A stretch of 63,851 nucleotides of DNA, filler included, from Hausera hauseri (taxonomy: Eukaryota): NCBI GenBank assembly GCA_046269625.1. It is 11 parts of 11 records of this genome, joined end to end, with 100 filler letters (N's around TTAATTAATTAA, not from the genome) between each part and the next. Parts side by side here need not be neighbours in the genome. Positions count along the whole stretch, not along the records: positions 27,384 to 41,668 come from JBJURY010655440.1; 10 more parts are not named here. The stretch is one strand, 5' to 3'. This document shows, piece after piece, positions 2,135-52,573 of the stretch (positions within the stretch are counted from its first letter, which is position 1; every line of letters starts with the position of its first letter). The position numbers were made by a program, and so were the translations under genes. A model generated the notes under the pieces. The model was given only the letters and a program-made list of their open reading frames with translations, was not told the origin of the DNA and ran no database searches.

Positions 2135-2170
2135 TGTTTCCTGTGGAATTATACATCCCCGCAATTACTA

Positions 2171-18200: not shown

Positions 18201-18353
18201 ACCGATTCCCATGCAATCAGTCTCAACAACATGAAGAATCTCAGTTGGAATCACACACCGGTAGCGAACAATTCAACGAATTCGTTGTTGAGAACGTCGA
18301 ATAACGTCAGTAAAAAAGCTAGATCTATTTTTTCTTGTTGCAGAACGTCCTAG
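15297..18353 (+). CDS. SNRK: SNF-related serine/threonine kinase, intronless, atypical N-lobe
   Basis: HRDLKPENVVFFEK, KLTDFGFSNKF, TSCGSLAYSAPEILLGD, EANDSETL and UBA ISATYFLLAE are SNRK-diagnostic. Long Ser-rich tail ending CCRTS. Confidence 0.9.
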   Translation: MTYTNLIDRFKKLKLYSVFKRMHLFPLKFSRSSLEFCRTLTDGVYGKVSKIRNPSIGKVFIMKEFHSKESAKNEIKILKKIQSHKNIICLIDYYMFDNSWLVVLEYADGGDLYDYIMKFDNGLPETEAKRYFRQVIQAIAYCHHLHIVHRDLKPENVVFFEKLQLVKLTDFGFSNKFTPGQTLETSCGSLAYSAPEILLGDAYDAPKVDIWSLGIILFILVSGHLPFDEANDSETLSKIMDCRFDLPSHLSASCKSLIKTMIVRDPEKRATLDEILAHKWLEIGNKTNCDIDNFSVPLITQQHLTMEEHLEILTKMSEGNLASVEEIQLTLDKNEYSYISATYFLLAERKLKRRYIEEYYRLKFLELNQEPVENDENTFDEPLLASSPTNQKSIISSNPVAESNEERFRRFSMILEDEEDEEEEEEFEAMMSLASVREELEITFPKSQISSEILSPSRCSRLSDEQENNDDTENIVNIRFSNFRQQQFTKRVRCRSAVYSRSLSSIPSTSQILSNIVEETMNNNDFNISAILRHFKSKGGKTTTSPTTSSYIPRFYRNSSGTFYRQTNSMTSAVDNSFDDNISNSSSFQFTNKQRVSLPNRLLTTHLNTSKRRSFPALYFPTGNLSHSHSSSDVSDNESAVRGYGEQKRVSVPKSFGKHFLSFNFHQRQNSKQPPELVTSNSSIASDCSRFFSQSGRRLRMKSSRSRPSSMGASMAFQLDDFQFEEKSNNSVPMPVNNSPTVTNMTMHRDICAPIHEEEELIRSRSYIDKETSVENPYHKIYSSYRSISVDCRRKSDSAEGTPSKVFISIPNKNLSLSKRSSATTSTFVNGPLQPCHKTNSFSLSSHLTQSNFSLSSFASSLRESKAIMNVIRGAFELQCLANRIKLGDHSTDGRCMSDVCASADVSGRESRCEFASITSLPLGHKTHSPDDSESVTLLAKNQSPCMGNFIINSTVPSDPSPIGESTKTDSHAISLNNMKNLSWNHTPVANNSTNSLLRTSNNVSKKARSIFSCCRTS

Positions 18354-19029
18354 ATTATTTTTGCATTTATTTAATGTTATTCAAGGGGGGTCTCCACACA
18401 AACATTCATTCTGGTCTTCATATTCGTCAACGAATTTTTATACTGTTTAAATATACCGTCTTTCAATTGCTTCTTCGATAATTCGTTATTTCTATCCACC
18501 GGTCGATTGTGATCCGTCGGTCGGGCCGGTTTTGTTTGTCGAATAAATGTGCCGGACTTTTTTTTGCCTTTTTATATATATCTACAAGTTTTTCGTAACA
18601 CTTAAACCGTAAATTTGACAATTTTTTTTTTAACTTTGATTTGATATTTAGTATGCCTGCTTAATACCACGCCATCTGTTCCAAAAAATTTAGGAATGCT
18701 GAAAAAAATGAGTAAATAAAAGTTGAAAATTTATTATAAATATAATTCCATAAACAATTTACACGCCAACTCATGACAATACTAACTCATTTGCATACCG
18801 ATAAACACAAGTGCAGTAGACATACGTAAAATTTTTTCAAAATTCACCGTTAAATGGATCAAAGTTTATTTAACCAAGAATTTCTGTAAAATAACCATGA
18901 AAAGNNNNNNNNNNNNNNNNNNNNNNNNNNNNNNNNNNNNNNNNNNNNTTAATTAATTAANNNNNNNNNNNNNNNNNNNNNNNNNNNNNNNNNNNNNNNN
19001 NNNNGTCACCGCTGCTGCTGCTGCTCATT

Positions 19030-20033
19030 GAATCTGCGATGCAAATATCCAACTCGGTTCACTGTATCCATGCCACTTGACAAGATATTGTTTATTCATA
19101 CCTTTACCGCGTGAACGTAGAATTTCCTGAATACGATATACATCAGGTTTCTCGGGGAGTACCTGCAGTTCCTGTTCTTAGAATTAACCACGTATTTCCT
19201 CGCCGTTTTTATCCTCTAAAACGTACATGACAAGTGTTTGTTTTATCTTGATTGCCGAAATGCGAAAAACCTCTTCGCTCCTGTTCTGATTGAATTTCTT
19301 AATAAATAGCGTCGTACTTATTTTTGAAATACGTACATAATCACTGGTTTTATATTTTGGGCCTTTAATTGCCTGTCGTCCTCGTCGGTTTTGATAAAGC
19401 CACATGTCTAAATCATCGATTACATCAACCGGACGCATTCCGTCGATTTCACGATGTGTCGAATGATTGTATGCATGAATAATATTAGGTAGTACATCTA
19501 CCTAGCGTTTGTTGTCTTGCGTCGTAAAGAATTTGTTTAGACGACCGCGCAATGTTCGATTAAATTGTTCAAAGAGTGCAGCTTTGTATTGGGAAAACAC
19601 CGAGTAGTGGTTTTCGCCGAACTGTTTCAAGACCGCTGTAACGTGGGCGTTGTAGAATTCCTTACCCAAATCCGTTTATATATGTTTCGGTGGCTGCTGT
19701 TGTTGTATCAGTGTTTAAACAGCGTCGGCAATCTCTTTACCGAATTTAGATTTCACGGCAATTGCACGTGCAAAACGACTAAACACATCAACGCATGTCA
19801 GTACGTACCGATACCCATCGTTGATGCTGGCGTACGGAATAATTTTCATCAGATCCATTTGCCATACATTATTTACACTGGAATAACGGTATGCACGAGT
19901 TGGAAACCGCCCTCCTATCGGTTTGTTTAGGCTGTTTGCTAACTGTTTCCGGAGCCAACGTTAAGTCTGTTGCCGAGTCTGTTTGACAGTCTTTGCCGAC
20001 GGGATGACGCCGGTCGAACCACACGTCGCGCAT
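19030..20033 (-). pseudogene. Polinton-type retroviral-like integrase with C-terminal chromodomain
   Basis: WQMDLMK..YASINDGYRYVL.CVDVFSR, TDLGKEFYN, KAALFEQFNRTLR, EEVFRI, EQELQ-like, YLVKWHGY. Several stops. Confidence 0.85.
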
Positions 20034-20062
20034 CGTCGGTGTTGTCGTCGATTTTGCTTGCA

Positions 20063-20748
20063 TTACAACAATTTGAACGAAGCGTAAATGAAAGATTTGG
20101 TAAACTGGGACAGAAAGATGAAAACCATGCACCCATATCGCCTAATCACCATATATTTACCGTCATTGTTTATACTGTGATGTTGTTTCAGTCGTTTACT
20201 AGGGGCGTTGGCAAGGCCAATGAGTCGTTTTCGATACTTTAGTAAATTGCGCTTTTCATTACCAATTTCAACGTGACCCACAACGATATTGTACAAAATT
20301 TCCATCAAATCGTCTACTAAAAACTGTGGAAATGATCGTAGCATGTTCCGCTTATGTCTCATAGGTGCCTTAATCAAAGCAATAAAGTACGGCTGACTAC
20401 ATTTGAATCGCATCCTTTTTTGTGGAAGTATTGATACTGCTGATGAAATGTAGTTGTTTATAACCGTTGCCATTTTGACAATAATTTGCGTCCAGCTACT
20501 GTTGTTCGATGCACCGAATTGATTAATCGCTTCACTGTAGCGGCGCTTCGTTTTGATACTCGTTTCTTGCCGCCGGGGACCTGCTTGGTAGGTTCTTTAC
20601 GTTTAACAATTGTTTTTCGGAAATTTTCATTTTCATGTCGTCGTGGTCGTCGATTTTCCAATTTGTTTATAGACACATACACCGCCTTCCTGAATGAAAA
20701 TGTCTGTTCGTACATGCATGTCGTCGGGACACTGTTGTGTAAAGTCAA
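20063..20748 (-). CDS. Two small basic Polinton-like virus genes between ATPase and integrase
   Basis: ORFs 20458-20748 and 20063-20473 have recognisable homologues at about 51958-52520 in the second copy. Confidence 0.55.
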
Positions 20749-21141
20749 TTAACATAATCCATGCTGTTTGTTCGTAGCATCATGATATGCATCTATCAAG
20801 TAGTCTCGGTTGTGAGGAAATGCTTGTCGTGCAACATAATCAATGATAGCCTGATCACGGGGATTTTTGAACAATACCAAATAGTGTACGTTGAGATTTC
20901 GTGTTCGATGCTGGCCGCCATGATGGAACATGTTTTGCGTAACGAAAATAACCGTTACGCCACGATGTCGTACAATCTTCGTGAACAGGTTGTTGAAGTC
21001 CGATTGTTTTGCGGCTTCGTGAAATAAATCGTCGATAACAATAACTTCACCGCTGCGTAATCTCTCTGACCAGTTTTCATCAAACCCAGAAATTATTGTT
21101 ATCGATGATTTCAGTTTACAAAATTCCCGATGTGTCAGACA
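20690..21141 (-). pseudogene. Packaging ATPase (A32/FtsK-like), C-terminal half
   Basis: Walker B VIVIDD, RHRGVTVIFVTQN, YLVLFKNPRD. The N-terminus is replaced by an insertion. Confidence 0.88.
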
Positions 21142-23020
21142 GTAGGGGAAAAATGGCGGTCCGATTCCACCCCCAGGAATCGATTCTGCACATGTGCCAC
21201 TCGATAGTGCACACGGAGCACTATCGACCGATAGAGTGCTAGGCGACGGTACTGATAGGCACATTTGCTAGGTGCACTTTTGCACATTTCACAAATCGAT
21301 CGCTGCACAGTGCAGTATTGATCGAATCGATCGGAACAAAGTGCTAATCGATAGCGCACATTAGTGCGCTTCGATTGTTGCACATTCCAGGTGTGCAGCA
21401 CATGTGCAAGTGTGCAAAAATCAATAATATTGAATTTACGATGATCCCAATAATGGTAATTATCACTCGGCACCGGGTGAAATCGGTAGCACACATGATG
21501 CGCTATGTGAATGTGCAGTTAGAATTTAAACCGGTTGATTGGTTTTCGAATAATTTCCAAGCGGGACCGAATCGCCACATGCATTTCCGCTATAAATTTT
21601 AAATCAATAATATCAATATGGCACATATACTAGCAGGTGAAGTACTTGATGTACTTTCGATTGGTGCAATATTGAGTGAGGTGTGCTCTTGGATACAATT
21701 GCGAGGGCACTTTTGCACTTTGCACATTTTTGCAGTTGTGCAGCGTAGGATTGATGGAATTAATCGGGGTCAAGTGCTATTGGATAGAGCACATCGAGAA
21801 GCACGTTGATATGTGGTGCGCAGTGCAAAAACTTGTGCAAAAATCAATAATATCGAATTTCCGATATTTCCAATATTGATGATTATGACATGTTATCGGG
21901 TGCATTTGATAGGAAACTTGGTGTAGTATATGAATGTGCAGTTAGAATTTAAATTTTTCGACTAGTTATCGATTAATATCGATCCAAAGTGCCAAATTAA
22001 GCGATTTAGCATATGTTTTTTACGCTCTAAGGAAGCAAAATTTGATATAACATTGAGCGATGACAGATAAAAAATCGGCTATGGCGATCTCGAATCTCGA
22101 GTCGAAAATTCGAATATTTTTTGGCTCGAATATAGAATATCGAACTATTCGAAAAATCTAACAGCGGAAATCGATTCCTCGTATTCGAAAACCCCTATGT
22201 ACATAAAATTATTCCATGAAAATGTACAATATAGGTATAAAATCAATTTTTCGAATTAAGCAAAATGTGTATTTAAAGCCCAGTAAAGCGGAAATGTGTA
22301 AATCTAATAGCGAGACTAAATAGGAAAGCATATATGCCGAATCGGAATATGATATTAGATGATCTATTACATTATTCGAACTCGAAGAATTATCGATTCG
22401 AACTCGAATATTCGGTCAAGCATGCATTATTAGAAGAATCTAATGGAGGCATGTGATTCCTCATGGTAGAATACTTATAGATCAATCAATATTAGTGCGG
22501 TGCAGTGCACCTCTCTGTATAAAAACAAGGTTTTCCCAATATGGTAAAAGTACTGGTTAAATGTTAAGTAATTGTTATGTTGATTAAGAAATTGAGGTGA
22601 ATTTGAAGGTAAAGCACATTGAAATCAATAAATCTTTAAGCGCACACAGATAGAAAAGCATATATGGAGAATTTGAGTCCGGTATCATATATTCGAATAC
22701 ATTATTCGAACTCGAATAATTATCAATTCGAACTCGAATATTCGGTCAAGCATGCATTATTCGAAGAATCTGGGGGCTTTAATCGATTCTGCATATATGA
22801 AAACCTATACGAATATGGCGCCCCATATATTTAAATCATTTGATGCAATAAAACAAACGCATGATGTTGACAGGCAATACGATAGCATAATTACGTGACA
22901 AGTTCACGCATTTGATGCATTAAAACAAACGCATGCAGTGCCAAATTTACCCCACCATTAAAATTATTTCCTTACATGTGTTTTGTTTTACTGCATCAAT
23001 TATCAAAATTAGACAGTGCA
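21142..23020. mobile_element. Non-coding repeat-rich insertion, probably a non-autonomous DNA transposon
   Basis: Interrupts the ATPase. Internal duplications (22321-22441 vs 22651-22771; about 21400-21540 vs 21820-21960) and direct/inverted TTGATGCA.TAAAACAAA motifs. Confidence 0.5.
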
Positions 23021-27383: not shown

Positions 27384-27854
27384 TTTGCCCCTGAAGAAAT
27401 TATGTTTGGCCACAGGTTAGAGAACAGATACACGTTAGTGGACCTACCGTCCACTGACGAGAATCCCAAAACTAATGAGGAAGCCATCGAAGCATTTCTG
27501 AAACGCATTATTGAAATAAGACAAAAGTATGACAATAATAAAAATAAAAAGCATGCAGCAAATGCGACTTTTAAAAATAAGCATGCGAATGAGAAATGCT
27601 TTGCACTAGGCGACCTCGTTTTACATAGACAATTGCAGGTAAGCACTGGTACTGCCTCCAAGTATCGACCTCAGCTCACGGGTCCGTATGTCGTCCAAGA
27701 GATCGCCGGGATAACGGCGACGTGCAAGCATTTAGAATCGGGAAGAATAATCAAGGCTCACTTTTTGAACCTTGCACCATACAGGTACGACGAAAATACG
27801 TTCTACCCCCCCAGAGAGGCTCTTGGGCAGACCCTCGGGGGACAAAATATATAA
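27384..27854 (+). CDS. pol: Integrase C-terminal region
   Basis: FAPEEIMFG, FALGDLVL, KYRPQLTGPYVV (GPY/F motif). Confidence 0.88.
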   Translation, partial: FAPEEIMFGHRLENRYTLVDLPSTDENPKTNEEAIEAFLKRIIEIRQKYDNNKNKKHAANATFKNKHANEKCFALGDLVLHRQLQVSTGTASKYRPQLTGPYVVQEIAGITATCKHLESGRIIKAHFLNLAPYRYDENTFYPPREALGQTLGGQNI

Positions 27855-27960
27855 AAAGCAGCATTTTTGCTACAAACGGTACAGTCATTTGACTACCGTC
27901 GAAGTAGCAACATTCCTCCACAGAATAATACTGAAGTTCATCAACAACCAACAAGGTAAG

Positions 27961-30468
27961 ATGACATTTAAAGCTCTTGCTCTTGCTCTTGCTCTCACCC
28001 TTCTCGTGACTGCTTCGATAATTAAGAGTGAGGTTCTGTCAAAAGCTAATTTAATTTACATCAAATCAGACAGAACAGCTACAATTAACCCAACCTTTGT
28101 TAACTTCCATAGAACTTTTGATTACGCAGCCATAGAACTTAGCATGAAAACACTAGATGTTTTCCTGGGACTATATCGGTCGTTTTGCAGTAACACTGAT
28201 AGAGTATATTATGAAACACCTGAAATTAACTTCGTAAAATCCACGACTTTTCAACAAGCACAATACAGATGTAACGATCTTCAAGCTAACCTTCCTGAAG
28301 TAAATTCAGAAGAGGACGCAAGATTCCTAATAGATCAAATGAGAAAGTACTCAGTCGGACGCATATATGCAGGCATCGGATATTCCGAAGGCCGACATGT
28401 CGCACTATCAGACATTTCCGACATTAAATACAAAAAGACCATCCTTTGTGAAAATTGTACGGTCCTAACACAAGGACTCACACAAAGCGAATATGACAGA
28501 ATAGTAACACAACACGGTTCAGAAATCCATTTTTTATATGGCATTCATAAAGAACAATTAGTTATAATACCAAAAGCTCACGACCCTAAAAAAGATTGTC
28601 CCCAATATCCAGTCATTTGCTATGGTAGACGAAGACAAATGTCTAATTCATTACAATTAATAGCGAAGCAGTCATGCAAAAGGGATGAACTAGAAATGGC
28701 TCGAATCAACGCCAACCTAAAAGAAGAAATTTCGCAGTTCGTAACACCTTCTTCAAGATTTAAAAGAACAGTCAATGAACATTTATACAATGAATTAAAT
28801 ATAGAGCCTACTAGGGAAAAGAGAGCGACAAGAGCAAAGAGAGCTATTGGTTTAATAGGAGCTGGAATCGGAGCAGGTTATTTAGGGATTGAATCCCTAA
28901 ATAGCATGATCAATAACCTGAATCCATTCTCATTAATGGGAAAGGGACTCGCAGCAATTTTTGGGTTTGCAACAAGTCAGGATTTGCAATTAACACAAAA
29001 ACAATTAGAATTACATTCTCAAGCAATTAAAAACATTTCCATCAACCAAAACATGTTAATTGCCTCTCACCTTCAAGTCACAAAAGACATCGATCAATTA
29101 CAAAAAGCTTATAGAAAACAAGAACATGATATCGCAGTTCTTTTTACAAACCTTGACAATAAGATGTCTGTACGCAATCTCCAGACTTTGTTGCAAACCA
29201 CGCTATTAAAGATGTCGCAGGCTATTGCATCAGCCTTACAACATCAGCCGTCCCCTTACGTATTCGGAGTTGCAGATCTCAAAAACCTCACCACTCTTTT
29301 TCAAACAAACTATGTGCCTTTAACTAATAAGTTACAAGATGTTATTACAACCGTCGCTATCATTGAAAACATCATCACATTTGTTTTTTCGGCACCAATT
29401 TTAAACCCTAAAAATGACTTATTTCTTTACGAAATTAGAGATCTTCCAGTATACACTAATAATTTACAATACCGATCTAAATATCATAATAGATATCTTG
29501 CAATTAGTTTTAAAGATGATCAATATACAACTTTAACCGACTCCGAATACTTTAATTGTCGACAATATTTTGTTTGCACGGCTGCGACACCTTTCTTAGC
29601 AATTGGCCCAGACTCTCCATGTGAGATTCTGACGTTAAAATATGATACCCCGCACTGTGAACTTGAACTGTACAACGGGCCAGTGCAAAACTTTTTGACG
29701 TATGGCAACGTCACTTACTATTCTATAAAAGAACAAATTGAAGTCCACATTGTTTGCGAGGACTCCTCCCAGGCTCCCTTTAATAAACACCAAGTAATAT
29801 ACGGCGCTGGCAAATTACAAATTGCACCAGGATGCAACGTTAAAATATCTAAATTTGCAAACATTCGCCCGAGTTATATAGTCAGTCGCCATAATCTTGA
29901 TAGTGACACTTTCTTTAAATTCCTTCAGGTGCCTGGTCATTTGCCACACAAATACCCCACAACAATTGCACCTAGTAATGTGTCACGACCACCACTTCAT
30001 CTCAATGAAGTAAAAACTGTAGGAGAAGCTATAAACATAGTTTTTAACCAGGATTCGACTTTCTCAGAAATAATACGAATTTCTATTTACATAATTACAA
30101 TTGCATCGATCCTGGCAACAATTTACTGCTGCATTCCCCGATTCAGACTCTGGTTTAACGGTTGTTGTTTTATTGAAAAACCTACTAAATATTGGCGTGA
30201 CATTAAAGGATATAAAGTTCCTGATTTTATAAGTCGACACAGACAGTTGGAAGCAGCCAACACTTGCATAGAAATGGAAAAAGTCGACAACAATATTGAA
30301 AAAGTCACGGCCCCGGAACCAGAGAATAACCCAAAGCCTGAAAAAGATCCCAAAGAGGACATTTTTGAACCCCGCCCAGTAGAGGATGTGGCCCCTCCCT
30401 ACCCGTTCAACAGGCTTAATAGACTGTACAGTCCATTATTAATATCGCAAATAAGACGATTCCAATAA
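27961..30468 (+). CDS. env: F-type envelope glycoprotein with C-type-lectin-like insertion
   Basis: Signal MTFKALALALALTLLVTAS; furin sites RFKR, REKR, RAKR; Gly-rich fusion peptide; heptads; Cys-rich region; TM IIRISIYIITIASILATIYCC; cytoplasmic tail with PPYP. Confidence 0.88.
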   Translation: MTFKALALALALTLLVTASIIKSEVLSKANLIYIKSDRTATINPTFVNFHRTFDYAAIELSMKTLDVFLGLYRSFCSNTDRVYYETPEINFVKSTTFQQAQYRCNDLQANLPEVNSEEDARFLIDQMRKYSVGRIYAGIGYSEGRHVALSDISDIKYKKTILCENCTVLTQGLTQSEYDRIVTQHGSEIHFLYGIHKEQLVIIPKAHDPKKDCPQYPVICYGRRRQMSNSLQLIAKQSCKRDELEMARINANLKEEISQFVTPSSRFKRTVNEHLYNELNIEPTREKRATRAKRAIGLIGAGIGAGYLGIESLNSMINNLNPFSLMGKGLAAIFGFATSQDLQLTQKQLELHSQAIKNISINQNMLIASHLQVTKDIDQLQKAYRKQEHDIAVLFTNLDNKMSVRNLQTLLQTTLLKMSQAIASALQHQPSPYVFGVADLKNLTTLFQTNYVPLTNKLQDVITTVAIIENIITFVFSAPILNPKNDLFLYEIRDLPVYTNNLQYRSKYHNRYLAISFKDDQYTTLTDSEYFNCRQYFVCTAATPFLAIGPDSPCEILTLKYDTPHCELELYNGPVQNFLTYGNVTYYSIKEQIEVHIVCEDSSQAPFNKHQVIYGAGKLQIAPGCNVKISKFANIRPSYIVSRHNLDSDTFFKFLQVPGHLPHKYPTTIAPSNVSRPPLHLNEVKTVGEAINIVFNQDSTFSEIIRISIYIITIASILATIYCCIPRFRLWFNGCCFIEKPTKYWRDIKGYKVPDFISRHRQLEAANTCIEMEKVDNNIEKVTAPEPENNPKPEKDPKEDIFEPRPVEDVAPPYPFNRLNRLYSPLLISQIRRFQ

Positions 30469-30546
30469 TATCGCAATAAGACGATTAATAATGTATGAAA
30501 ACACGTGTATAAATAAATTTTTCAATTTTCCATTTGTTAATTTAAG

Positions 30547-32556
30547 ATGCATCAATCAACGACGAATCAATCAAAGACGAAACAATCAAAGACGAAGAAG
30601 AAACATGCTCCGGTCAGCGCAGCCAACCCTGTTTACGATTGGGATGACACTAGCCCCTTCAATCTCAAGCTCCAATATCCCAAGAACAAGTCAAGATTCA
30701 TGCAACTTGATGACCACTCAATGAGCAGCCCCATCATGTCTACGGTGGACAAAAAGCAGGAATGTCCACATAACCACACCACAATGCGTGAAGCAGGATC
30801 TAACATGTTTATAACCTTTCCTTATAAACCATCCCTCATGACACTTCTAAGACGAGTCATGACCACTCCAACTGACAAAACCATAAGTGCCTTTGTCCCC
30901 GATCCTCCACGAGTCTATGCAGGCTATCAAAACCACTGGAACATAGCAGTGGACACACCGGTCCTTTCCATCGTTGGTGCTTGTAATACCAACATTTCAT
31001 CACTCATCGTCACGAGAGAAACGTACGAATACGCCATGGTGAAAGTCATGGCATCCACTGCAAGAGAGCAGCACATCGTTGAATTCAAGGTACCATTAAT
31101 TCAACTCATTGAAACTGCTCCACACAGGATTGTTGTCGAGACGGCCTCCGCACTCGACATTGACGACCATCTCATCACGTACATCATCCATGCCCAAAAT
31201 CCGAAGGAGCCCTTAGCCATGATCAAGCTATGGAATCTTTCAACCTATGGATGCTCCAAACTCCATCTACAATCCGTGTACCAAGTCCCTCGTGTAGAAG
31301 TTACCGACGAACTACACATTCTCGGTCTCTCAGGTGACAGACTTACAACATTCAATGTCACTTTTCCCTACATCAAAGACCCAGTCATGACGATGCTGGA
31401 AGAACTAGACCTTCAAGCTATTGGGTATAGAACAAAGAAGACCTCAAAACCCAATTTCTCCCTCACAACCTTCGAGAAATTGCCCAACTGTGCCGACCTC
31501 AACCTCATGGCACGGATGACACCCCAGAAACCGACCTTCAGACACCCGTCTGAATGGGCCAACACCATCGTATTGCCAACACGTTCGGTCACCTACCAAG
31601 GCAAGATCCCAACGAAGCCATTCTTCTACCCTCCAGCAATCCGACACAGACCAGGAACGCCATACGGGGTAATCAAACCAGTCTTATTCCCCGCAGGTTT
31701 CCAATCCTATAGGAACCTATCAACAAACAAATTGACATCTGTGAAAGATGTCATCAACGATGTTGCGTTCAGCATTGGTTCTGATCAATTAGAGGATGGC
31801 TTAAAAGAATTCGCTCAGCAGTATGCCATCACACAAGAGTTTGTACGAGACAGCCTCTTGATGCCCTTTGAAGAATTCTACAAGAAGATACCCAAATGCT
31901 ATTACAACAAGCACAACCAACCTTACTTCATTCGATCGCCAGTGAAAGAAATCATGCCCGTCGACTGGATACACTCGACCAAACATCCAGCCGTTTCGGA
32001 TCGGACCACACAAGTAAAAATAATTGGTGAAAATGAAAACTTTGATTTTCCTGTTTGCAGTGACGACTGCAACCCAGAAGAATCCACCATTGCAATCAAC
32101 GGTGACGTCGAAACCGAAATCCTGCCGGACGACATCATCGACCCCGATTTCTGGTTCTCAGATGACCCACTATTCCCATCTGCAGACGAATCAGACGCAA
32201 CCATCAGAATGGACATGTTGCCGGCCGCTCCTTTACCTTCAATCCCGATTGAAGAACCTTCCAGAGTTAAACCCAGAAAAACGAAAGCCTCACGCAAGCA
32301 GGTTGCCCAAGATCCCATGTTGAGTGATGCCGCACTCCCTGATGACTTCCCTGACGCTTTAAAGATGATCATCGAAAGACTGAAACAAGCCGAGGCCAAG
32401 CCATTCAAATCTGAACAGCCGGTTGACGCGCACAAGACCATGTTTGAGAGCATTCCAGAAGATATGAAGAAGAAAATACAGAAGACTGCTATTGAAACTA
32501 TTATTAAGGCCGATAAAGATATCATTCATAGTATTAACATGAAACTTAAAAAGTAA
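30547..32556 (+). CDS. 669-aa orphan accessory ORF between env and LTR
   Basis: Long intact ORF: basic N-terminus, globular middle, acidic/Pro-rich C-terminus. No recognised domain. Confidence 0.8.
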   Translation: MHQSTTNQSKTKQSKTKKKHAPVSAANPVYDWDDTSPFNLKLQYPKNKSRFMQLDDHSMSSPIMSTVDKKQECPHNHTTMREAGSNMFITFPYKPSLMTLLRRVMTTPTDKTISAFVPDPPRVYAGYQNHWNIAVDTPVLSIVGACNTNISSLIVTRETYEYAMVKVMASTAREQHIVEFKVPLIQLIETAPHRIVVETASALDIDDHLITYIIHAQNPKEPLAMIKLWNLSTYGCSKLHLQSVYQVPRVEVTDELHILGLSGDRLTTFNVTFPYIKDPVMTMLEELDLQAIGYRTKKTSKPNFSLTTFEKLPNCADLNLMARMTPQKPTFRHPSEWANTIVLPTRSVTYQGKIPTKPFFYPPAIRHRPGTPYGVIKPVLFPAGFQSYRNLSTNKLTSVKDVINDVAFSIGSDQLEDGLKEFAQQYAITQEFVRDSLLMPFEEFYKKIPKCYYNKHNQPYFIRSPVKEIMPVDWIHSTKHPAVSDRTTQVKIIGENENFDFPVCSDDCNPEESTIAINGDVETEILPDDIIDPDFWFSDDPLFPSADESDATIRMDMLPAAPLPSIPIEEPSRVKPRKTKASRKQVAQDPMLSDAALPDDFPDALKMIIERLKQAEAKPFKSEQPVDAHKTMFESIPEDMKKKIQKTAIETIIKADKDIIHSINMKLKK

Positions 32557-32942
32557 AAAGGCTCTTACAGCCAAAGTAAAAATTGAAAAATTCAAAAGCT
32601 CTTAAAGCAACAAAAACAAAACGCGCACAATTCACAATTTTTGGATCCAAACTTTCTTTAGATTTAAAATTACATGCACCAATTTTTGAAAATCCATTGT
32701 TCCTTTTAACGCGAATAGGAATCTTTTATTATAAAAAGTAACCATGTATTTGTAACTCCCATACTCCCTTTTAGCGCGAATGTTTAATTAAAAAGTGACT
32801 ATGGAAATAACGCGAATGTTTTACAAACTTATTACAATTCAATTTCAATTCACAAAATGTTACTATTTTAATCATGTCATTTTGTCTCCAAAGGAGCAAA
32901 CCCCAGCGAGTGCACCCTGTTCTTTGCCCCTTTGAACGCGAA

Positions 32943-33428
32943 TGTAGAAAACATATTAAAATACGTAACTTACTTACATTTTGGACAAACTATGACTCAT
33001 CCTTTTTGCTAAAATCATGGTGAAATACCAAACCATGACTCATCCTTTTGCTAAAATTATGATGAAATACTTCCCCCAATTCAATTAAAAAGTTAATTGG
33101 ATTTTGCAGACATCGCATGTCAAACACCAATAAATCATTGCTGGCAGTAAAATCTCTGCCAACCTATAAAAGCCCAGCTTTCTTGTCATAGTTAAGTCAT
33201 AACAAATCCAGACTCTGATCCGCTAACTTGCCCCCTCCAACTTGTAAGTACCAAAACTAACTTTTCATTATCTGTAACTTAGCATAAGCTGAATAAAGAT
33301 ATGATCTGTTCTTGGACTTGTAAATCGGGAGGGATACAACTAAGAGAACACAGGAAGACTAGAGAATCATTCGCCTAGAATTTTTCTCCTCTTTGAGGTT
33401 TTATTCTAAGTCGAAAATCTAGCCTACA
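32943..33428 (+). repeat. Putative LTR (about 486 bp)
   Basis: Inverted termini TGTAG...CTACA, duplicated TGACTCA-containing block (32992-33028, 33035-33070), TATAAAAG 33165-33172, AATAAA 33292-33297. Only one copy, so the boundaries are inferred. Confidence 0.6.
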
Positions 33429-33628
33429 TTTTTTTCCTTTTTCATTTCAATTTTTTCCACAATGGATATTTTTTACGGAATAGCAACTCTGATAGCGTGT
33501 TTTGCTTGCTGTTTCGGACTGATGGTAACCTCCATTTAAACTGAGCTTTTATCATTGCACCATATTTCATGTCGCACGTTTAAATATGCCATTAGAACAT
33601 TTTGCATGCACCATATTTCATGTTATTT

Positions 33629-33708
33629 CACGAGTAGCCCATTGCACTCGTTATATTTCTATGTTATTTTAATATATAAATAACACGAGTAGCCCATTGC
33701 ACTCGTTA
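33629..33708 (+). repeat. Two identical 25-nt hairpin-forming repeats in the leader
   Basis: CACGAGTAGCCCATTGCACTCGTTA at 33629-33653 and 33684-33708, with an ACGAGT/ACTCGT stem. Confidence 0.85.
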
Positions 33709-33775
33709 ATTTTTCATATATTTCATGTGTAGACGGCATATTTAAACACATTTTGAAAAGCTCAGTTATATTTAT

Positions 33776-35338
33776 ATGTTGCACACCTCACCGTGGCTAT
33801 GCACAATTCCTTGCCACAATTACCGAATGTCCATTACAGCAGCAAACCGCAATCGTAAATTCAAGTGTAAAATTCACGGCCAGATTACTAGACGATGTCT
33901 ATACCTCACCAGAGAATTAGATCACGTCAAAATACTGAATTTAAGTATAGAACTTTTACTGCTACAGTTTCTGACTCTTTGTGCATTCCTATTGTCGCTA
34001 TAGCCAATATTTTGAATACGTTTAACGAAGCAAATAATTCCCTGTTAAACGATAGAGAATTGAGACATTTAACTCAGGCATTAGCTATCCTGAGCCGTAG
34101 TGGACTGGAATTTATCTCGCGTCACAATCGCCAACGAGATATTGAAAACAATAATGCCAGTTCCACTCCCTAATGGTATTGTAGGAAGACCTATAACAGA
34201 CAGAGAATTGAACATTCTTGTCGATAAAGTTATGGTCCTCACTGATTATCTCCAAGAAATAAGTAATTACGATAAACAAGACCCCATTGATCAAGATACT
34301 CATTTTTACATTACCTTTGCTCTCAGACTATTAGCAAATCGCATTGATGGTTTTGCATACCGTCATGACATCGTGCTGATACAGCGCGAATAATTCCCCT
34401 ACACAGAAAACTCTTGATGAAACTTTTTCTGCCTGGCCAACAGATTCTGTTTCGTTAATTTTTTTCCTGTGTTTCAAATAAGGTTTATATTAAAAAGTAG
34501 AATGCCCAATCACAGTAGTCCATCAAGAACTCTATTTTTCATCAAAGTACATTTGTTTAAAACAATCCAATTACTTCAGCAAATTAATAGATCAAGACTA
34601 GTTGACCATCATGAACAAAATATTGTAGAAATTGTTCATCTTGTTTTTGAACTCGCAAATCACCTTAATGTTTTTTACACCACCAATGGACTTGCCAATT
34701 TTGCATATTGACATTCCCTCAGCCCATACCTTATTTTCCATCCAATTAAAATGGAAAATTTTCATCGCAGCATTAACGAGAGAATACTCTTTGCTACGAT
34801 TAGAGCTAATATTAGCAGACTCAACGATTTGGCAACAAACATTTCGTATATCAGTCCGTCAAACTTAACTACTGAAATTTACGACATAATTGATTCAGTC
34901 ACAGACTCCCTTGCGACATTAGAGAATGAACCAAGAGCCACAACAAGCTCCAACTTTACCGTTCAGACAGGGACAAAGAGACCTGCAAAGAACGGTCGCA
35001 CTTATTGAATGCACACTTCTTATTCTAACTGATCTCCTAATTAAATTTGATCAGCACAATACCATAGATAGATGGGACGTAATAATCTTCCTGTTACGAC
35101 AAATAAGTGACGCTCAATTTCAGCTTTTAATGATTTTATAAAAATGGAAGAAGCACCAGTAGCTACTCCATTTGCTCTGTTACAAAGATCTGCAGAGAGA
35201 CTCCGCGATCTCATAGTCTATTATCATACACTAACTCTTGAGGAAATCAGACAAAGCCTGATCCTCACGCAAAGAGACATTTACGAAACTCTCATATTTT
35301 ATACAAACGAAGATAGACCACATATTCCCCACTTTTAA
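33776..35338 (+). CDS. Array of about 7 small (64-92 aa) co-oriented ORFs between LTR and gag
   Basis: ATG ORFs at 33776-34003, 33895-34173, 34154-34393, 34502-34711, 34751-35008, 34926-35141 and 35144-35338. Tightly packed, amphipathic, partly self-similar. Confidence 0.55.
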
Positions 35339-35579
35339 TTAAAGGACAGAGTTCAGGACATTTTCTTTATTTATGTGAAGTGAAAAGAGACACTGCAACT
35401 TTTGCTGTTTTGCCGACGAAAATAAAGACATTACCGGCAATTCACCAACCATTCTGGCTGCTTCCTCGTCCAAACGCCGGGAAGCAATTCTGAACGCGAA
35501 CACACGTGAGTATGAACAATTTTTCCAGTTGTAAAAATTGAAATGTTATTTTTTTGACTCTTGTGTTCTCTGACCTGTT

Positions 35580-38240
35580 ATGGCAAACGCGGGAATAGAT
35601 AAAGATCACCCCATATACCAAAATGTCCTAAAAAGTCTAAATAATTTGAGAAAAGAAGAAGGAAGAGAGCAAATTACAAATTTACCACCTTGGTGGACGG
35701 TTTTACCACAACGCCACCTTTTATCTCTTATTTTTCGTTTCAATAAGGAAATTGACTGGCATAAACAAAATCAAATAGCCAACAAACGTCTAGGTCTCCC
35801 ATACAAAAATCAGATTTATCTAAATGAAACAGAGCACCAACTCTGGTTATATAATCATAGACAATTACGCATTGGACAAAATCAAGTCCAATCAGTTCCT
35901 TCTGTTCTCATTGACGAATTTGATGAAAAACTCTATTTTCCTGACGGTAAAATCACCGATCAAGTAGTTTTCATCACAGATACTGATTGCCGTTTAATAA
36001 ACACTCCCACATATGTTGAGTCTCAACAAATTTATAGAGCTACTCATTCACTTAAGGGATATGTTCCCCCGAGTGTTGTTTCATCTGTTCAATCCTCTAT
36101 ACCAGATTTTGCTGGAATACCATCTTCTACTCCGCTTAATTTAACTAGAGACATTGAAGGATTAGATTTAGAAGGTTTAAATCTCGATCCTGAAAGAAAG
36201 GGAAGTCTCCCTCTACAACGCAATAACAGCGATTCCATACTGTCTGTTTCCAATTCGTCTATAGAAACTGTTCATATAAATCCTGAAGTCGACAATCCAT
36301 TTATTCCAACAGACGACTCCAATATAGCACAAGGTGCCATTCCAAAATCTACACCAACCAAAATAGAAGGAGAAGACGATTTTGACAAATCTATTCTCTC
36401 ACCTCCGTTTATTCCACCAATCGTAAAGTCTCCTCTTTATAAACCTCGCATAAGCTTTCCACCAAATTTAGACAAAAATCCATTAACAGAAAAATTATTT
36501 GAAAGAAGGGGACGAACAAAATTGCCTCCCCTTAATATTGAAGCAGCAGAACAATATAGACAGCAAGAAATGGAAGACGCAATTAGAAAAATTCAAACCC
36601 TAGAAAGAGAGAAGGCTGCTCTAGCAGAAAGCCTTCGTAAAGCGGCTATTCAACCAGCCGCCGTAAAAACAGAAAGGCAAGAAATAAGCGACTTGAAAAA
36701 TCAAATGGGAGATTTGATGAATATGGTAAAACTAATGACAATAGGCAACCAAATGAATGTAACCACAGATTCAGAAAGAAAATTGGTAGATAAGTTCCAA
36801 GATGTCACCATGGACACCAATCCTCCATGTCTATTCATTACGTTGGATAGACCAACAAATATCATTCCCGTTTCTGAACGACGATTTCCTGAAACATTGT
36901 CATGCCTTAAACCAACGACGATTATCAATACCGTTGGAACATTTGATCCCACCACCTCACCGGAGGTTGATTTCCGATGTATTTGGGACAGAATTTTAGA
37001 TCAAACTAGAAACTATTCATTGTACGAACATGAATATGTTATGTGTCTCAGAATCGTAATGAAAGGATCAGCAGGCTCAGATCTAGACAGAATGATTAAA
37101 CAATATCAAGGCGATCTTAACCAAATCTTAGACGCCATTCAAGATCTGTATATTCCTCAAAATACGATATTTGATGAAATCATTGAGTTGAACACGTTTA
37201 AACGACGTCCAAACGAACACATGAAATCAATGGTTCGTAGAGCGTCTCTTTTGATTGGAAAACTGAAGCCGACAGTAGCGCCGGCAGCTTGGGACGATCG
37301 TCAACACCACCTTTTGAGTCAAATTATCAAACAAGTAATTGATAAAGAAACTTTTGTCTATCTCAAGGCAGAAGAAATAAAATGCGCACAAATGGGACAA
37401 ACTCTATCAATAGAAGCAATTACGAACATTGTAGATTTTTTCGAAGTCTCTCATAGCCGTGTCCCTACAACAGAAGTAAAATTACAGTATGATGTTCATT
37501 CATGTCGCATTATTACTCAAACTGACGATCAAAATAATAAAACTGAAATTGACGAATTGAAAAATGAAATAAGCAATCTTAAAACATCCATCAATGTACT
37601 TGCCCCCAAGCGTCGTAAAATAGATAACGCAGTGAACAAACCGCTGAATACAGCAAACAGTTCACAACAACGCAAACAAATTTTGCCTAAACGCCGTTTT
37701 CAGCCAACTGAAAAGATGGATACGTCTGAAACGTCTCTTGTAGTCCCACAAAATAATCCAAACAAGAGATCATTTGATTCCAACGTTGGCAAACAGTATA
37801 GTTATGGCCAACCACAGACACCATCACAAAAGCAAAATTATCAAAAGGCAAAAACGAGATTCGTTCCTTCCTATCCTGGGAGTGGCTCACAGAGTACCAA
37901 GACCACTCCCATTCCGTCGCAATATCGCTCGTTGGATTACTACAACGATCACGATAGAACGACGAATTTTTATAAGGGGAAATATTCTTACAAAGGAAAT
38001 AATTACTATCGCTCTAGATCAAAAAGCCCCTATAGAGGAAGATCGCAATATGGTTATTCTAGAAATAGAAGTCAATCCCCTTACAGGAATAATGGCAAAC
38101 CAAAGAAAAGTTATCACTTCAGAGGGAAAAGACATGACGTCGCATTGAATTTTTACAAATGTTCCATTTGTCCTGACGCTCATGAAACTGGTACTTCATG
38201 TACCACGTTTAAGGCGTTGCCATATTCCCCAAACGCATAG
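35580..38240 (+). CDS. gag: Gag-like polyprotein (886 aa)
   Basis: Position before pol, coiled coil plus helical capsid-like core, RS/Y-rich basic C-terminus and CSICPDAHETGTSC knuckle. Confidence 0.82.
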   Translation: MANAGIDKDHPIYQNVLKSLNNLRKEEGREQITNLPPWWTVLPQRHLLSLIFRFNKEIDWHKQNQIANKRLGLPYKNQIYLNETEHQLWLYNHRQLRIGQNQVQSVPSVLIDEFDEKLYFPDGKITDQVVFITDTDCRLINTPTYVESQQIYRATHSLKGYVPPSVVSSVQSSIPDFAGIPSSTPLNLTRDIEGLDLEGLNLDPERKGSLPLQRNNSDSILSVSNSSIETVHINPEVDNPFIPTDDSNIAQGAIPKSTPTKIEGEDDFDKSILSPPFIPPIVKSPLYKPRISFPPNLDKNPLTEKLFERRGRTKLPPLNIEAAEQYRQQEMEDAIRKIQTLEREKAALAESLRKAAIQPAAVKTERQEISDLKNQMGDLMNMVKLMTIGNQMNVTTDSERKLVDKFQDVTMDTNPPCLFITLDRPTNIIPVSERRFPETLSCLKPTTIINTVGTFDPTTSPEVDFRCIWDRILDQTRNYSLYEHEYVMCLRIVMKGSAGSDLDRMIKQYQGDLNQILDAIQDLYIPQNTIFDEIIELNTFKRRPNEHMKSMVRRASLLIGKLKPTVAPAAWDDRQHHLLSQIIKQVIDKETFVYLKAEEIKCAQMGQTLSIEAITNIVDFFEVSHSRVPTTEVKLQYDVHSCRIITQTDDQNNKTEIDELKNEISNLKTSINVLAPKRRKIDNAVNKPLNTANSSQQRKQILPKRRFQPTEKMDTSETSLVVPQNNPNKRSFDSNVGKQYSYGQPQTPSQKQNYQKAKTRFVPSYPGSGSQSTKTTPIPSQYRSLDYYNDHDRTTNFYKGKYSYKGNNYYRSRSKSPYRGRSQYGYSRNRSQSPYRNNGKPKKSYHFRGKRHDVALNFYKCSICPDAHETGTSCTTFKALPYSPNA

Positions 38241-38297
38241 ACGCTTCGGAAGTCGCTGCACCGAAGCTAACTCTCGGATTGACGGACACATCAGCGA
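38228..38297 (+). other. -1 programmed ribosomal frameshift signal (slippery heptamer and pseudoknot)
   Basis: C CCA AAC in gag frame; stem GCTTCGG(38243-49)/CCGAAGC(38261-67); loop TCGCTG pairs with CAGCGA(38292-97). The -1 frame is open into pol. Confidence 0.75.
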
Positions 38298-41200
38298 GTG
38301 TCCCTTTCAATTGTTCTGTAATCAAAATGAGTAAACTGGCTATTCGTAAAACTTTTGAACCAAAACTTTACTATATCACCCTAATCTTGCAAACTGAAAA
38401 TTCTACATGCAAAGTAAATGCTCTTGTAGATATTGGTTGTGCCAAAACTGCAATGTCCAAAATTACTTTTCGGAAACTACACAACAAAGACAGTACTCTA
38501 CAACTCGAACAAAGCGAAGTAAAGATCCAAACTTGTGACGGTACAAACCATTCTATCATGGGATTCATCCAAATTGATATTCATTTTTCTGGTTCCGACT
38601 TCAAGCTACGTCAACAACAAATAATGGTTGTTGAACAACTCAGTGATGAATTCATCATTGGTTCTGACATTCTTGGTAGCGAAGTTGTCTCAAAAATACA
38701 ATCACCTTTCATTTATTTTCACAACTCAGGAAAAGAAATAAAACAGGAAATGAATCTAGTCACATTTCCCCAACTCACTTTACAGTCAATCAAAAATCTA
38801 ATTATCCAACCTTTCCAACAATTTTGCATTTCCACAAAAATTAAAGGAATAAAAGTCCTCGAGACTCCCCTAATATTCAAGTCAGTATTCCCCCACCTCA
38901 AATTGACAAAAATTGCATTTGAGGATGATAACATTTTTGCTTCCATAGAAAATGATTCTAACCACCAAATTGAATTGCAGTCAGGCAATCCAATTATAAA
39001 CATACACAAACCTCCAATGTTAATAGCAACCCCACATGATGATTATATGGATGATGACGAAAAACAATTCTGCATAGAAACTTTTAAACAGGAAGGGTCT
39101 TATCAACCCTCTATCACTGCCTTTATTGAAGAACGTTCCAACATTACAGAAGCAGACAAAATAGATATCCCAGAAAACGTCACAGAGGAAGATTTTATCG
39201 CTATGTTCGAACTTTCCCATTTTAATGAAAAAGACAAAAATTATCTGATAGACATTCTCAAATCAACCAGACCAGCTTTTTCCGTTCACAAATATGACAT
39301 TGGAAAAACTCATTTGATTACCATGGACATTGAATTAATAAAAGATGATGATATCAAAGTCCAAAAGTACGTTCCTATTTCCATGAATGTAATTGACAAA
39401 GCTAATGAAATTCTTGATCAGATGGAGAAATATGACATTATTAGAGAATGTCACTCTCCATCACAATATTGCTCTAACATTTTAGTCATACCTAAGAAGG
39501 ACAAAAATGCAGTCCGATTATTGTTTGCTGGTAGACTACTGAATTACAACACGAAAAGATTACCCGTCGCTATAATCACGAAGGCAGAAATTTTGGCCCA
39601 CCTTGTAAATAAATCTCACTTATCGTCTCTTGATTTTGCCGACGCGTTCTTTCATATTCCGCTTACAGAGAAAGCGCAGAATCTTACAGCGTTTTGGACG
39701 CCAAATCACGCTAAAAAGATGTGTTTTAATCGAGCCCCACAGGGACTCCGTAATTCTCCCATGTATTTAAAAACTTTGCTTGACTTAATATTTTTTGATC
39801 TCAGTGAAAATGTTCTATTTTATGCAGATGATCTTTTGATAGCCACTAATGGAACACTCAAGGAACACTTTGAATTCCTTCGATTAGTACTAGAAAGACT
39901 AGTCACTGCGGGTCTGAAACTTAGACCGCAGAAACTTTTGATTGCACGAGAAACCATAAATTTTCTCGGAATGGTATTTTACAAAAACACACTTTCAATT
40001 CCTGAGCTGAAGCTCAAAGCATTTCGTGAATTACCAGTGCCAAACACCGCGAAAAGGATGAAATCAGCTTTATGCGCCTTTTCATATTATCGACATTTTG
40101 TTCCAAACTTTGCACATATAACTCGTACTTTACATGAGAAGGCCTCATGTAAAACAACATTTAAATTTACATTAACTGATGAGGATATAAGTCAATTTAA
40201 GTCTATAGTGAAGACAATTTGCGACAACGCAATGACTTACTATCCAGAAAAAGATAAACCTTTTTATGTACAGACCGACGCCTCACTATATTGTGCTGGC
40301 GGTCGTTTATTTCAACGCAATGAAGACGGCCATGAAATGCTCATCGCCGCAGTAAGTCGAACCTTTACAAAAACCGAAAGAAATTACACCATTTATAAAA
40401 AAGAGGCACTAGCATTGTTGTACACTCTCCGAGCATTTGATTATTTCTTAAAATATGCTCCAAAATTAATCTTGCTAGTAGACGCCAAAGCACTTACTTA
40501 TATAAGATTGGCTAAAGAAGGTGCCCCTATTCTGCTTCGATTCTCGTTGGAACTTAGTAAATACGAAGCAGACCTCATTCATGTTCCAGGAGAACAAAAT
40601 GAAATTTCCGATCTCCTAAGCAGACAACATAAACATATTCCTGCAATTGAGATGGAAAAACTTGATAGACCGACCATTAGTGAAAAAGACACCATAAAAA
40701 TCATCGACGCACTCACCATTCCGTCAAACTTCTCTTTGACAAAATCTCAATTATTTTTTCTCCTTAATGGTCCCTCTCCAGTTGATGACATAAAGGTTGT
40801 AAAACAAACAAAAAGTAAAGCTCAACCTGGATTGAAAAACGTGAAAAACACGCCAGTTACGTTGCATAAAAGAAAAATCAAAATGCCCCGAACAGTAAAA
40901 GTGTCAGTCATAAAAACTAACAAGAAAATCCAATTCGATGACAATGTCACGTATATAAACGTAATTGAACCACCTCTAATTGAAGGTGAAGATAATCAAG
41001 AAGTCAAATCTTACACAGATGTTCAATCTCATTGCATTATTTCTAATGGTAATAAAATTTCCCCTAAGCAATTTCATTCTCTGCAAATGGCAGACCCCAC
41101 GATTGTGGCTTGCATTGACAATAAAGATAAGAATCTCTCATTGAAAAATGGCATTTTTTATAAAATATGCAACGGAAGTAAAAAGATTTTTCTACCAGAA

Positions 41201-41668
41201 AGTTTGATGGTACCCCTTATTACGCTACATCATTATGTAGCACCTGGGATTCATAAGACCAAACAACAAATTTCACGTGACGTCCGTGAAACTTATTACG
41301 TATCTCAGTCTAAATTCGATCAATGCATCAAAGAACAAATTAACAACTGCCACATTTGCCAGATATTTTCAGATGGTAAACAACATCTTAAGATACTACA
41401 ACTTCCACGTCATAGCACAACCAGGCTCTCGTGGTCAGTTGATCTTGTAACCGATCTGTCAGTATCCGACAACGGCTACAAAATTCTTCTGATAGCAGTA
41501 GACGATTTTTCTAACTACATTGTGGCCATACCACTTAGAACAACAACAGCTAAAGAGCTAATTCAGGCAATTAAGAACCATTTGATTAGCCCTTTTGGCA
41601 TACCTAAGTTCATAAGATCTGATGAGCAACCTGGTATTTACAATTCCAAAGAATTTTTCGCATTTTTC
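38279..41668 (+). CDS. pol: Pol polyprotein: protease, RT, RNase H, integrase N-terminus/core (cut by contig end)
   Basis: LVDIG and IIGSDIL (PR); LDFADAFF, APQGLRNSP, YADD (RT); TDAS, KKEALA, VDAK, SDLLSR (RH); HH..H..CHIC, WSVDL, RSDEQ (IN). Confidence 0.93.
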
Positions 41669-51321: not shown

Positions 51322-51955
51322 ATGATAAACAAATCATGTGAGGAATGGTTGTATTATTATTAGATGAAGCTGCAGAATGATTCCATTTTCCAGATTGTAG
51401 GGCCCAGTGGAAGTGACAAAACACACTTTGTATGTAAACTATTGCAGAACTACCGTAACATGTTCCATTCACCGCGGTACAATCACATTTACTGACATCA
51501 GAGTGTTGGTGATGATGGTGAGTCCGGTTTGGCACATCAGGAATTTTGTATACTGAAATCGATAACAGTAATTGATGGGTTTGATGAGAACTGGTCATAG
51601 AAATTATGCAACGGTACCGTTATTGTCATTATCGATTTATTTCAGGAAGCTGCGAAACAATCGTACTTCAACAACCTGTTCACGAAGATTGCACGGCGGA
51701 CAGAATCGAACACGAAATCTAAACGTACACTATTCGGTGTTGTTCAAAAATCCCCTTGATCAGACTATCATTGATTATGATGCGTGACAAGCATTTCCTC
51801 ACAACCGAGCCTAATTGATAGATGCATGTTATGATTCTACGAACAAACCGCATGAATATCTGTTTATTGACTTTACACAACAGTGTCCAGATGGAATTCT
51901 TGTACTAGCAGATATTTTCAATCAGAAAGGTGTACATATCTATAAACAAATTCGA
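51322..51955 (+). pseudogene. Polinton packaging ATPase, decayed
   Basis: GPSGSDKT (Walker A), VIVIIDLFQEAAKQ, LFKNPLDQ, YLFIDFTQ. Homologous to 20690-21141. Confidence 0.85.
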
Positions 51956-52573
51956 AAATGGACGACATAATTGTGATAAAATGAAGAATTTCCGAAAACA
52001 ATTGTTAAACGTAAACCTATCAAGTGTGTGTCCGGCAAGAAACGTGTATCAAAACGAACCGTTACAGTCAAGCGATTAATGAATCTGTGCTTCGAACAAC
52101 AACAGCAGCAGCAGCAGCAGCAACTAGACGCAAATTACCGTCTCAGTGGCAACGGTTATAAATAACTACGTCTCAGCATCAATACGTCCAAAAAATGCGA
52201 TTCCAACGTAGTCAGCCGTACTTTATTGCTTTGCTCAAGGCACCTACGGGACATAAAAGAAACATGCTGCGATCATTTCCGTAATTTGTAGTAGACGATT
52301 TGATGAAAATTTTATACAATATCGTTCACGTTGGTATCAGCAAAGATGGCGGATTCCTTGGTGCAATTCTACCAAGTGTCACGTCATAACTTGGTGGACT
52401 CATTGGTGGAACAGTTTAGTATAAACAATGACGGTAAGTATATAATGATTTAGCGATATGGGTGCACGGTTTTCATTATTTTGACCCAGTTTACCGAATC
52501 TTTCATTAACATTTCGTTCTAATTGCTGCAATGCTAACAAAAACGACATCATCGACAACACCGAAGACAACGA

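Follow-up and report, generated by a model that had tools for sequence, protein, structure and literature searches.

What a long, intact reading frame is doing between the envelope gene and the long terminal repeat (LTR) of a retroelement is the question raised by a locus of Hausera hauseri. It lies in a 63,851-nt stretch of assembly GCA_046269625.1 (the window, taken at its full length, filler included), on a piece of 14,285 nt (27384-41668) that is one of the window's contigs separated by N spacers. The element on this piece is a gag-pol-env LTR retroelement of Ty3/gypsy build, and the frame, here called ORFX, is its conserved fourth large gene, as judged from the open frame, its relatives and selection. 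ORFX runs from 30547 to 32556 on the plus strand, as do all features below unless noted, and is open without a stop for 669 amino acids, as the first-pass annotation of the sequence had reported. We conclude that the element truly carries it as an accessory gene, placed between env and the LTR and maintained by selection, and propose that it probably acts early and in the nucleus to regulate how the element itself is expressed.

Relatives of ORFX, all drawn from metagenome-type collections, were found at E≤0.001 in 22 cases among 4016 candidates (90% collection) and in 47 cases among 50%-cluster representatives, 25 of the latter at E≤1e-30, with none in viral contigs or GTDB genomes and no second match within the window. 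A metagenome scan, which reaches relatives of 35-50% identity, confirmed 12 ORFX loci out of 255 pattern matches. Env stood directly upstream of ORFX in all 12 fetched loci (about 9 distinct elements, the loci of the distant P0088-P0125 lying outside this count), and gag, pol, env and ORFX were seen together in 5 of the 12, the ones that were long enough. Synonymous and non-synonymous changes in the ORFX core of four close pairs numbered 9/3, 11/5, 5/4 and 8/1, and the L004-L006 pair gave a pS of 0.76 against a pN of 0.16; by these counts ORFX is under purifying selection. Over six elements, identity was 64-95% for the reverse transcriptase-RNase H region (RT-RH), 31-61% for Env and 31-53% for the ORFX core, and ORFX identity followed reverse transcriptase (RT) identity (Spearman 0.67, 15 non-independent pairs). 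For the idea that ORFX is a host gene, or an unrelated piece of mobile DNA, that entered only this copy, the outcome that the annotation had set against its own proposal, no supporting point was found. The same place after env in 12/12 loci, at RT identities down to 64%, and purifying selection refute it for near relatives of the window element, and we give it next to no weight. Searches of Pfam, PHROGs and the PDB by sequence and profile gave no match to ORFX, no likeness to the element's Gag was found, and an ESM Atlas search returned no usable match, a result that shows neither absence nor novelty.

Signals from which ORFX could be expressed were found about 2.6 kb upstream of it, before env rather than after it. 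A TATA box lies at the pol stop (27848-27856); 7/7 elements have one, at -109 to -147 relative to the env ATG. An initiator-like ACAGTC (27881-27886), 31-33 nt past the TATA, would mark the transcript start, and the initiator, being of TCAGT type, is a weak pointer to an arthropod host. By a strict pattern the TATA-initiator pair, spaced at 30-33 nt, was present before env in 5/7 elements against a background of 29/1568 windows, and the initiator of the remaining two aligns at the same column. Directly before the env ATG lies a splice donor kept across elements, AAG/GTAAG at 27953-27960 with its GT at 27956. In 6/7 elements GGTAAG lies no more than 6 nt from the env ATG, and L012 has GGTATGT overlapping its ATG; counted in six elements, GGTAAG precedes only 5 of 1490 ATGs, which equals the number of their env starts having the donor. 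The putative first exon is free of ATG in 6/7 elements. At the other end, a T-rich tract with AG (30518-30546), a candidate acceptor by its pyrimidine content, ends in TAAG at 30546 and abuts the ORFX ATG, just as the annotation had described. An AG near the ORFX start with at least 60% pyrimidines ahead of it was found in 12/13 sequences, a count without background in a spacer that is AT-rich. The implied intron, 27956-30546, runs from GT to AG over 2591 nt and holds env. The annotation's option of a spliced ORFX mRNA is supported by the conserved donor before env and the T-rich acceptor before ORFX. On this model the internal promoter at the end of pol would give an RNA with a first exon of about 75 nt, splicing from the 27956 donor to the 30546 acceptor would remove env and yield the ORFX mRNA, and retention of the intron in the same RNA would yield Env; the model predicts a precise junction of 27955 to 30547.

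The first option in the annotation was an internal promoter, its signals lying immediately upstream of ORFX, at 30502-30515. These motifs are indeed there, CACGTG at 30502-30507 and TATAAATA at 30508-30515, and CACGTG seldom turns up when the spacer is shuffled. When E-boxes, TATA boxes and initiators were counted within 150 nt of the ORFX start in 13 sequences, the E-box was found in the window only (1/13), TATAWAW in 5/13 and a TATA-initiator pair in 0/13. When the 78-nt spacer was shuffled 20,000 times, 30% of the shuffles contained TATAWAW, 3.7% TATAAATA and 0.16% CACGTG; the annotated TATA is thus near chance. A start site served by these motifs would, moreover, fall about 10 nt before the ATG, and transcription of ORFX from a promoter of its own at this position appears very improbable.

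The LTR has the same TATA/initiator build as the internal promoter, with a splice donor upstream of AATAAA; this donor (33244 in the window) is present in 6/6 elements. A donor-like site also lies 74 nt before the gag ATG (35504-35511), with a similar site at -48 to -80 in 6/6 elements. Because of these donors in the LTR and before gag, LTR-started RNAs could, as read from the motifs, also use the ORFX acceptor. Within the short internal exon, an acceptor-like TTCCTCCACAG was noted at 27913-27923, and also in L001; an LTR-started RNA might splice in there to make Env.

The predicted protein has a folded core and a tail of low model confidence. Modelled at full length from 23 sequences, ORFX gave a poor result (pLDDT 54.6), whereas AlphaFold2 applied to residues 52-498 from 45 sequences reached a mean pLDDT of 85 and a pTM of 0.85. 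The folded core of about 440 residues (60-490; 30724-32016) is predicted to consist of a beta-rich domain, followed by an extended linker that is basic and then by a small helical subdomain; residues 261-390 are basic, with a pI of 9.95. C146, R157, C236, H240 and E255 were invariant in 45/45 rows of the alignment, C73 and H75 were kept in 39/40 and H130 in 42/44, giving six conserved Cys/His in the core (C73, H75, H130, C146, C236 and H240). Hydropathy revealed no signal peptide or membrane segment in ORFX (peak 1.33, versus 2.25 for Env), and zinc binding by these residues is for that reason likelier than disulphides. The helical subdomain (about residues 394-460; 31726-31926) has a weak likeness to Cro/XRE helix-turn-helix domains, and 26 of the 50 rows listed for it are repressors, controllers or antitoxins by title. 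The structure prediction and comparison that the annotation had recommended gave a core that folds confidently, with no significant match: Foldseek gave 0 matches at E≤0.001 on the PDB and viral models, the two libraries covered, in which the beta-rich domain was compared within larger models, and the best VIA-align Z scores were 4.0 and 4.3, with none of at least 5.

Beyond the core, an acidic segment predicted with low confidence (residues 491-560; 32017-32226; pLDDT under 50) holds 20 acidic and 2 basic residues. Around W536 lies an aromatic motif, with the W in 22/23 ORFX proteins and I[DE]xxFW[FL] in 13/23. Acidic activation domains have this acidic-aromatic make-up. The acidic aromatic tail claimed in the annotation therefore holds for this segment with its conserved W but not for the last 69 residues, which are net basic. 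The tail is variable with short conserved motifs within it, and ends in a partly conserved C-terminal helix (32458-32550; helices 638-668 of the model). The basic, nuclear-signal-like start noted by the annotation is lengthened in the window copy by a 15-nt repeat (3.1 copies at 30551-30596).

We suggest that ORFX would act in the nucleus, probably binding zinc, and would increase the expression of the element's structural RNAs or alter its timing. That it does so as a transcription activator is a real possibility that stops short of probable; in that case the folded core would bind DNA and the acidic-aromatic segment would recruit co-activators, as foamy virus Tas does. Activation, which we rank as more likely than RNA export or splice control, is favoured by the shared build of the two promoters, by the acidic-aromatic segment and by the Tas precedent. 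Several observations weigh against a regulator, or against an activator in particular. A K-K/R-x-K/R nuclear signal before the core was found in 0/23 aligned ORFX proteins, some relatives (for example P0012, P0014 and P0021) have a weak acidic segment, the Cro/XRE likeness of the helical subdomain (Z 2.7-4.3) is at noise level and rated common by the tool, and known retroviral activators are smaller than ORFX. No motif common to the internal promoter region and U3 recurred over the 4 elements tested, their overlap being only marginally above shuffles in two elements (7 and 17 of 300), and the transcript model itself is read from DNA motifs. Finally, the ORFX core diverges as fast as Env while RT keeps its much higher identity, a rate that also fits a protein in conflict with the host.

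This last point bears on an alternative that we regard as unlikely, in which ORFX counters host defence as an adaptor like Bet or Vif or as a suppressor of silencing, its core stabilised by zinc and its tail motifs recruiting host machinery. Its rapid divergence compared with RT, the conserved Cys/His and the short conserved motifs in a variable tail would suit such a role, and foamy Bet is made from the same internal promoter as Tas (PMC3185757; this and the other papers cited here were available in part). Close pairs are, however, under purifying selection with no excess of amino-acid changes, and some of the small genes in the element's leader could fill the role instead. The second branch of the regulator reading, by itself rather unlikely, is that ORFX acts as a Rev- or CERV-like factor, made from fully spliced RNA, that exports the intron-retaining env, gag and genomic RNAs. 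Donors directly before env (6/7) and gag (6/6) imply that Env and Gag would both need intron-retaining RNA, residues 261-390 are basic, and CERV of Cer1 provides a precedent (PMC10309623). The 3' untranslated region (UTR; 32557-32942) carries four copies of CGCGAA, the last abutting the LTR, and this motif is repeated there in 5/7 elements (3-6 copies, with 1 copy in the other 2/7 and a shuffled mean of <0.1). These repeats would nevertheless stand in spliced RNAs too, the 3' UTR folded no better than shuffles (z -0.36), and export would leave the acidic-aromatic segment without explanation. A metal-dependent enzyme of undescribed fold, in a role comparable to that of the captured enzyme genes of rotifer LTR elements, is improbable; the invariant polar R157, E255, C146, C236 and H240 and the single compact, confident predicted fold are in keeping with it, as is the precedent of GDSL and DEDDy third genes (PMC5408684). 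Against it, no Pfam family was common to more than 1 of the 45 ORFX members at E≤0.1, 0/45 matched an esterase or exonuclease family of the rotifer type (GDSL, DEDDy) at that threshold, and no enzyme name stood among the matches listed. Captured enzymes usually keep detectable cellular relatives.

The contig itself, judged from its sequence and links, is a circular permutation of one LTR retroelement of about 14.5 kb, since five complete relatives have the two parts of integrase separated by 192 nt (tblastn), contigs of runs X1 and X3 join 41668 back to 27384, and the depth of the LTR contig is about doubled in run X1 (11.5 versus about 4-6 for other listed X1 contigs). Along 27384-41668 the order is the end of integrase, env, ORFX, 3' UTR, one LTR, a 2-kb leader, gag, and pol to mid-integrase, with about 190 nt of integrase absent between 41668 and 27384. 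A collapsed two-LTR element is the simplest reading of this arrangement, and a one-LTR circle may be an alternative. No target-site duplication was seen for the element, which has one LTR in the permuted contig. The integrase C-terminal part occupies 27384-27854 (placed by tblastn against relatives and the contig links), and gag, of 886 amino acids, lies at 35580-38240. The pol frame (38213-41668, cut at the contig end) encodes protease, RT, one RNase H and integrase by Pfam and motif positions. At the gag stop, a CCCAAAC slippery heptamer with a hairpin (38228-38267), a -1 gag-pol frameshift signal, is present in 5/5 elements tested, a count that leaves out L012. The window copy may be slightly decayed, its frames open nonetheless, because pol residues 401 and 578 differ from those in 46/46 relatives and ORFX departs from near-invariant alignment columns at about two positions.

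The single LTR (32943-33428, TGTAG...CTACA) has TG...CA ends, a TATA at 33165, an initiator-like motif at 33195, the donor at 33244 and the poly(A) signal AATAAA at 33292. Neither a tRNA primer site (TGG) after the LTR nor a purine tract before it was seen. In their place, a T-tract follows the LTR directly in 5/6 elements (33429-33454 in the window), the sixth ending after 6 nt, and a pyrimidine-rich conserved motif ending in CGCGAA precedes the LTR in 8/8 elements (32917-32942). On the minus strand this T-tract reads as a purine tract directly next to the LTR. One contig (L003:3201-3207) ends with the LTR end plus TTCGCG, the reverse complement of the pre-LTR motif, and LTR contigs in three runs start 2-3 nt before TG; together these could point to a preferred target site or to DNA ends left unprocessed. 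The LTR end and the following tract (33330-33460) can also pair with the region before the gag ATG (35530-35585), pairing that was matched by 0/300 shuffles in L001 and L005 and by 14/300 in the window, and that would loop out the 2-kb leader. That leader (33895-35338) contains about six small ORFs of 64-92 amino acids, which often overlap; four of them have relatives at 39-69% identity in L001, L004, L005 or L010; those scanned had no significant match in Pfam or PHROGs. Rfam and ARAGORN scans found nothing.

The env gene (27961-30468, stop codon 30466-30468) encodes 835 amino acids, laid out as a hydrophobic N-terminus, a C-type lectin domain, a basic cleavage-like site followed by a hydrophobic peptide, and a transmembrane segment near residue 707. 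By eye this layout is class-I-like; the profile matches were to C-type lectin domains only. The lectin domain (residues about 90-160) matched LY75 at a profile E of 1.7e-8, Pfam Lectin_C was matched in the Env of 6/7 elements, and the domain is perhaps a receptor-binding module; the literature search yielded no account of an Env with this combination. The short tandem duplication that the annotation had seen across the env stop is present at 30441-30461 and 30467-30486, and was not seen in the other fetched elements.

Elsewhere in the window lies a second, different Ty3/gypsy element, on the minus strand (1145-6002). It encodes RT, RNase H and integrase, together with an Env that matches Baculo_F weakly (E 4.6e-5). 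Aligned by hhalign with an F-like Env elsewhere in the window, the Env described above gave a probability of 2.6. A contig at 41769-49588 consists almost wholly of a diverged 46-nt tandem repeat. Two separate contigs have about 2.2 kb in common at 77% identity in opposite orientation (19019-21140 and 51527-53611), and a 171-aa ORF in the first of them (20749-21264) may be a Polinton/Maverick-type ATPase fragment. An uninterrupted 1018-aa ORF at 15297-18353 has an N-terminal protein kinase domain that by eye resembles SNF-related kinases.

The ORFX family, the gag-pol-env-X design with its choice of Env or X by splicing, and the odd LTR flanks appear to be undescribed in the searchable literature; no description of this element or gene was found, in a search that lay mostly outside subscription papers. 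There are precedents both for accessory genes and for internal promoters, and ORFs located after env have been noted in general terms (PMC6431247). ORFX adds to these a new protein family with a confidently modelled core of 440 residues, open to structure work. We tentatively suggest, as a proposal that is itself rather doubtful, that the element belongs to a clade of "complex" enveloped retroelements outside vertebrates with a two-promoter early/late programme evolved independently of foamy viruses, in which splicing from an internal promoter would select either Env or a transactivator that binds zinc and has an undescribed fold, alongside small leader genes and possibly priming without the usual tRNA site.

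The foamy viruses, to whose tas/bet the annotation had likened ORFX, have an extra gene between env and the 3' LTR and an internal promoter besides the LTR, from which Tas is made and turns on the LTR (PMC3185757), and their LTR has a splice donor upstream of the poly(A) signal (PMC3694450). The likeness is one of layout: ORFX stands after env and before the LTR, a second promoter is indicated, and the LTR has a donor upstream of AATAAA. The element itself is no foamy virus. The foamy internal promoter lies inside env, whereas here it precedes env and would serve both Env and ORFX by alternative splicing, and this element's Pol carries a single RNase H, of gypsy type, and is served by a frameshift signal, whereas foamy Pol is translated from a spliced mRNA. 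Classification as a spumaretrovirus was ruled out by this RNase H and by the frameshift signal in 5/5 elements. The RT-RH region scored 101.6 bits to Ty3 and 92.7 to Pr125Pol, which we take to be foamy Pol, a small margin for a sequence distant from both. For Tas or Bet similarity, ORFX matched no Pfam family and, by Foldseek at E≤0.001, none of the viral models, libraries in which the presence of Tas and Bet is unconfirmed. Env-bearing Ty3/gypsy "ancient errantiviruses" have gag-pol-env, a protease-RT-RNase H-integrase order with one RNase H followed by a bridge region, and LTRs (PMC13524379). The present element agrees with them in gene order, domain order, single RNase H and LTRs, and differs in adding ORFX, the small leader genes and the Env lectin domain and in having no tRNA-type primer site seen. 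That study describes only three ORFs (its main text, as far as this was available, uses neither "accessory" nor "extra") and left out LTR pairs >14 kb apart (PMC13524379).

Lokiretroviruses and Odin are also retrovirus-like elements and have a tether and second RNase H, the lokiretroviruses with a Mononegavirales-like Env (PMC9040795); the Pol described here has one RNase H directly after RT, with RNase H motifs at pol residues 649-762 and no second RNase H before integrase found by Pfam. In the Oikopleura elements Tor3b/4b, env is expressed from an internal promoter by 5' RACE, its transcripts being without splicing evidence (PMC4402516). An internal env promoter, suggested here by motifs, would be common to both, and the available part of that paper mentions no gene after env, where ORFX stands in the present element. 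A further parallel is CERV of C. elegans Cer1, a 517-aa nuclear protein with a cysteine-rich region, made from a spliced mRNA and needed for genomic RNA export (PMC10309623). Compared by description, CERV and, as proposed, ORFX would both be large, cysteine-rich regulators of a Ty3/gypsy element, encoded in a 3' position, expressed from a spliced mRNA and without outside homologues; CERV replaces env and shares gag exons, whereas ORFX is a single exon beside an intact env. Complex vertebrate retroviruses are typified by genes dedicated to regulation; in the one invertebrate case considered here, CERV, the regulator replaces env. If the proposal made here is true, gag-pol-env-X with a second promoter and a splice choice between Env and a regulator would be the same logic arising in the Ty3/gypsy lineage, and would bear on how retroviruses became complex.

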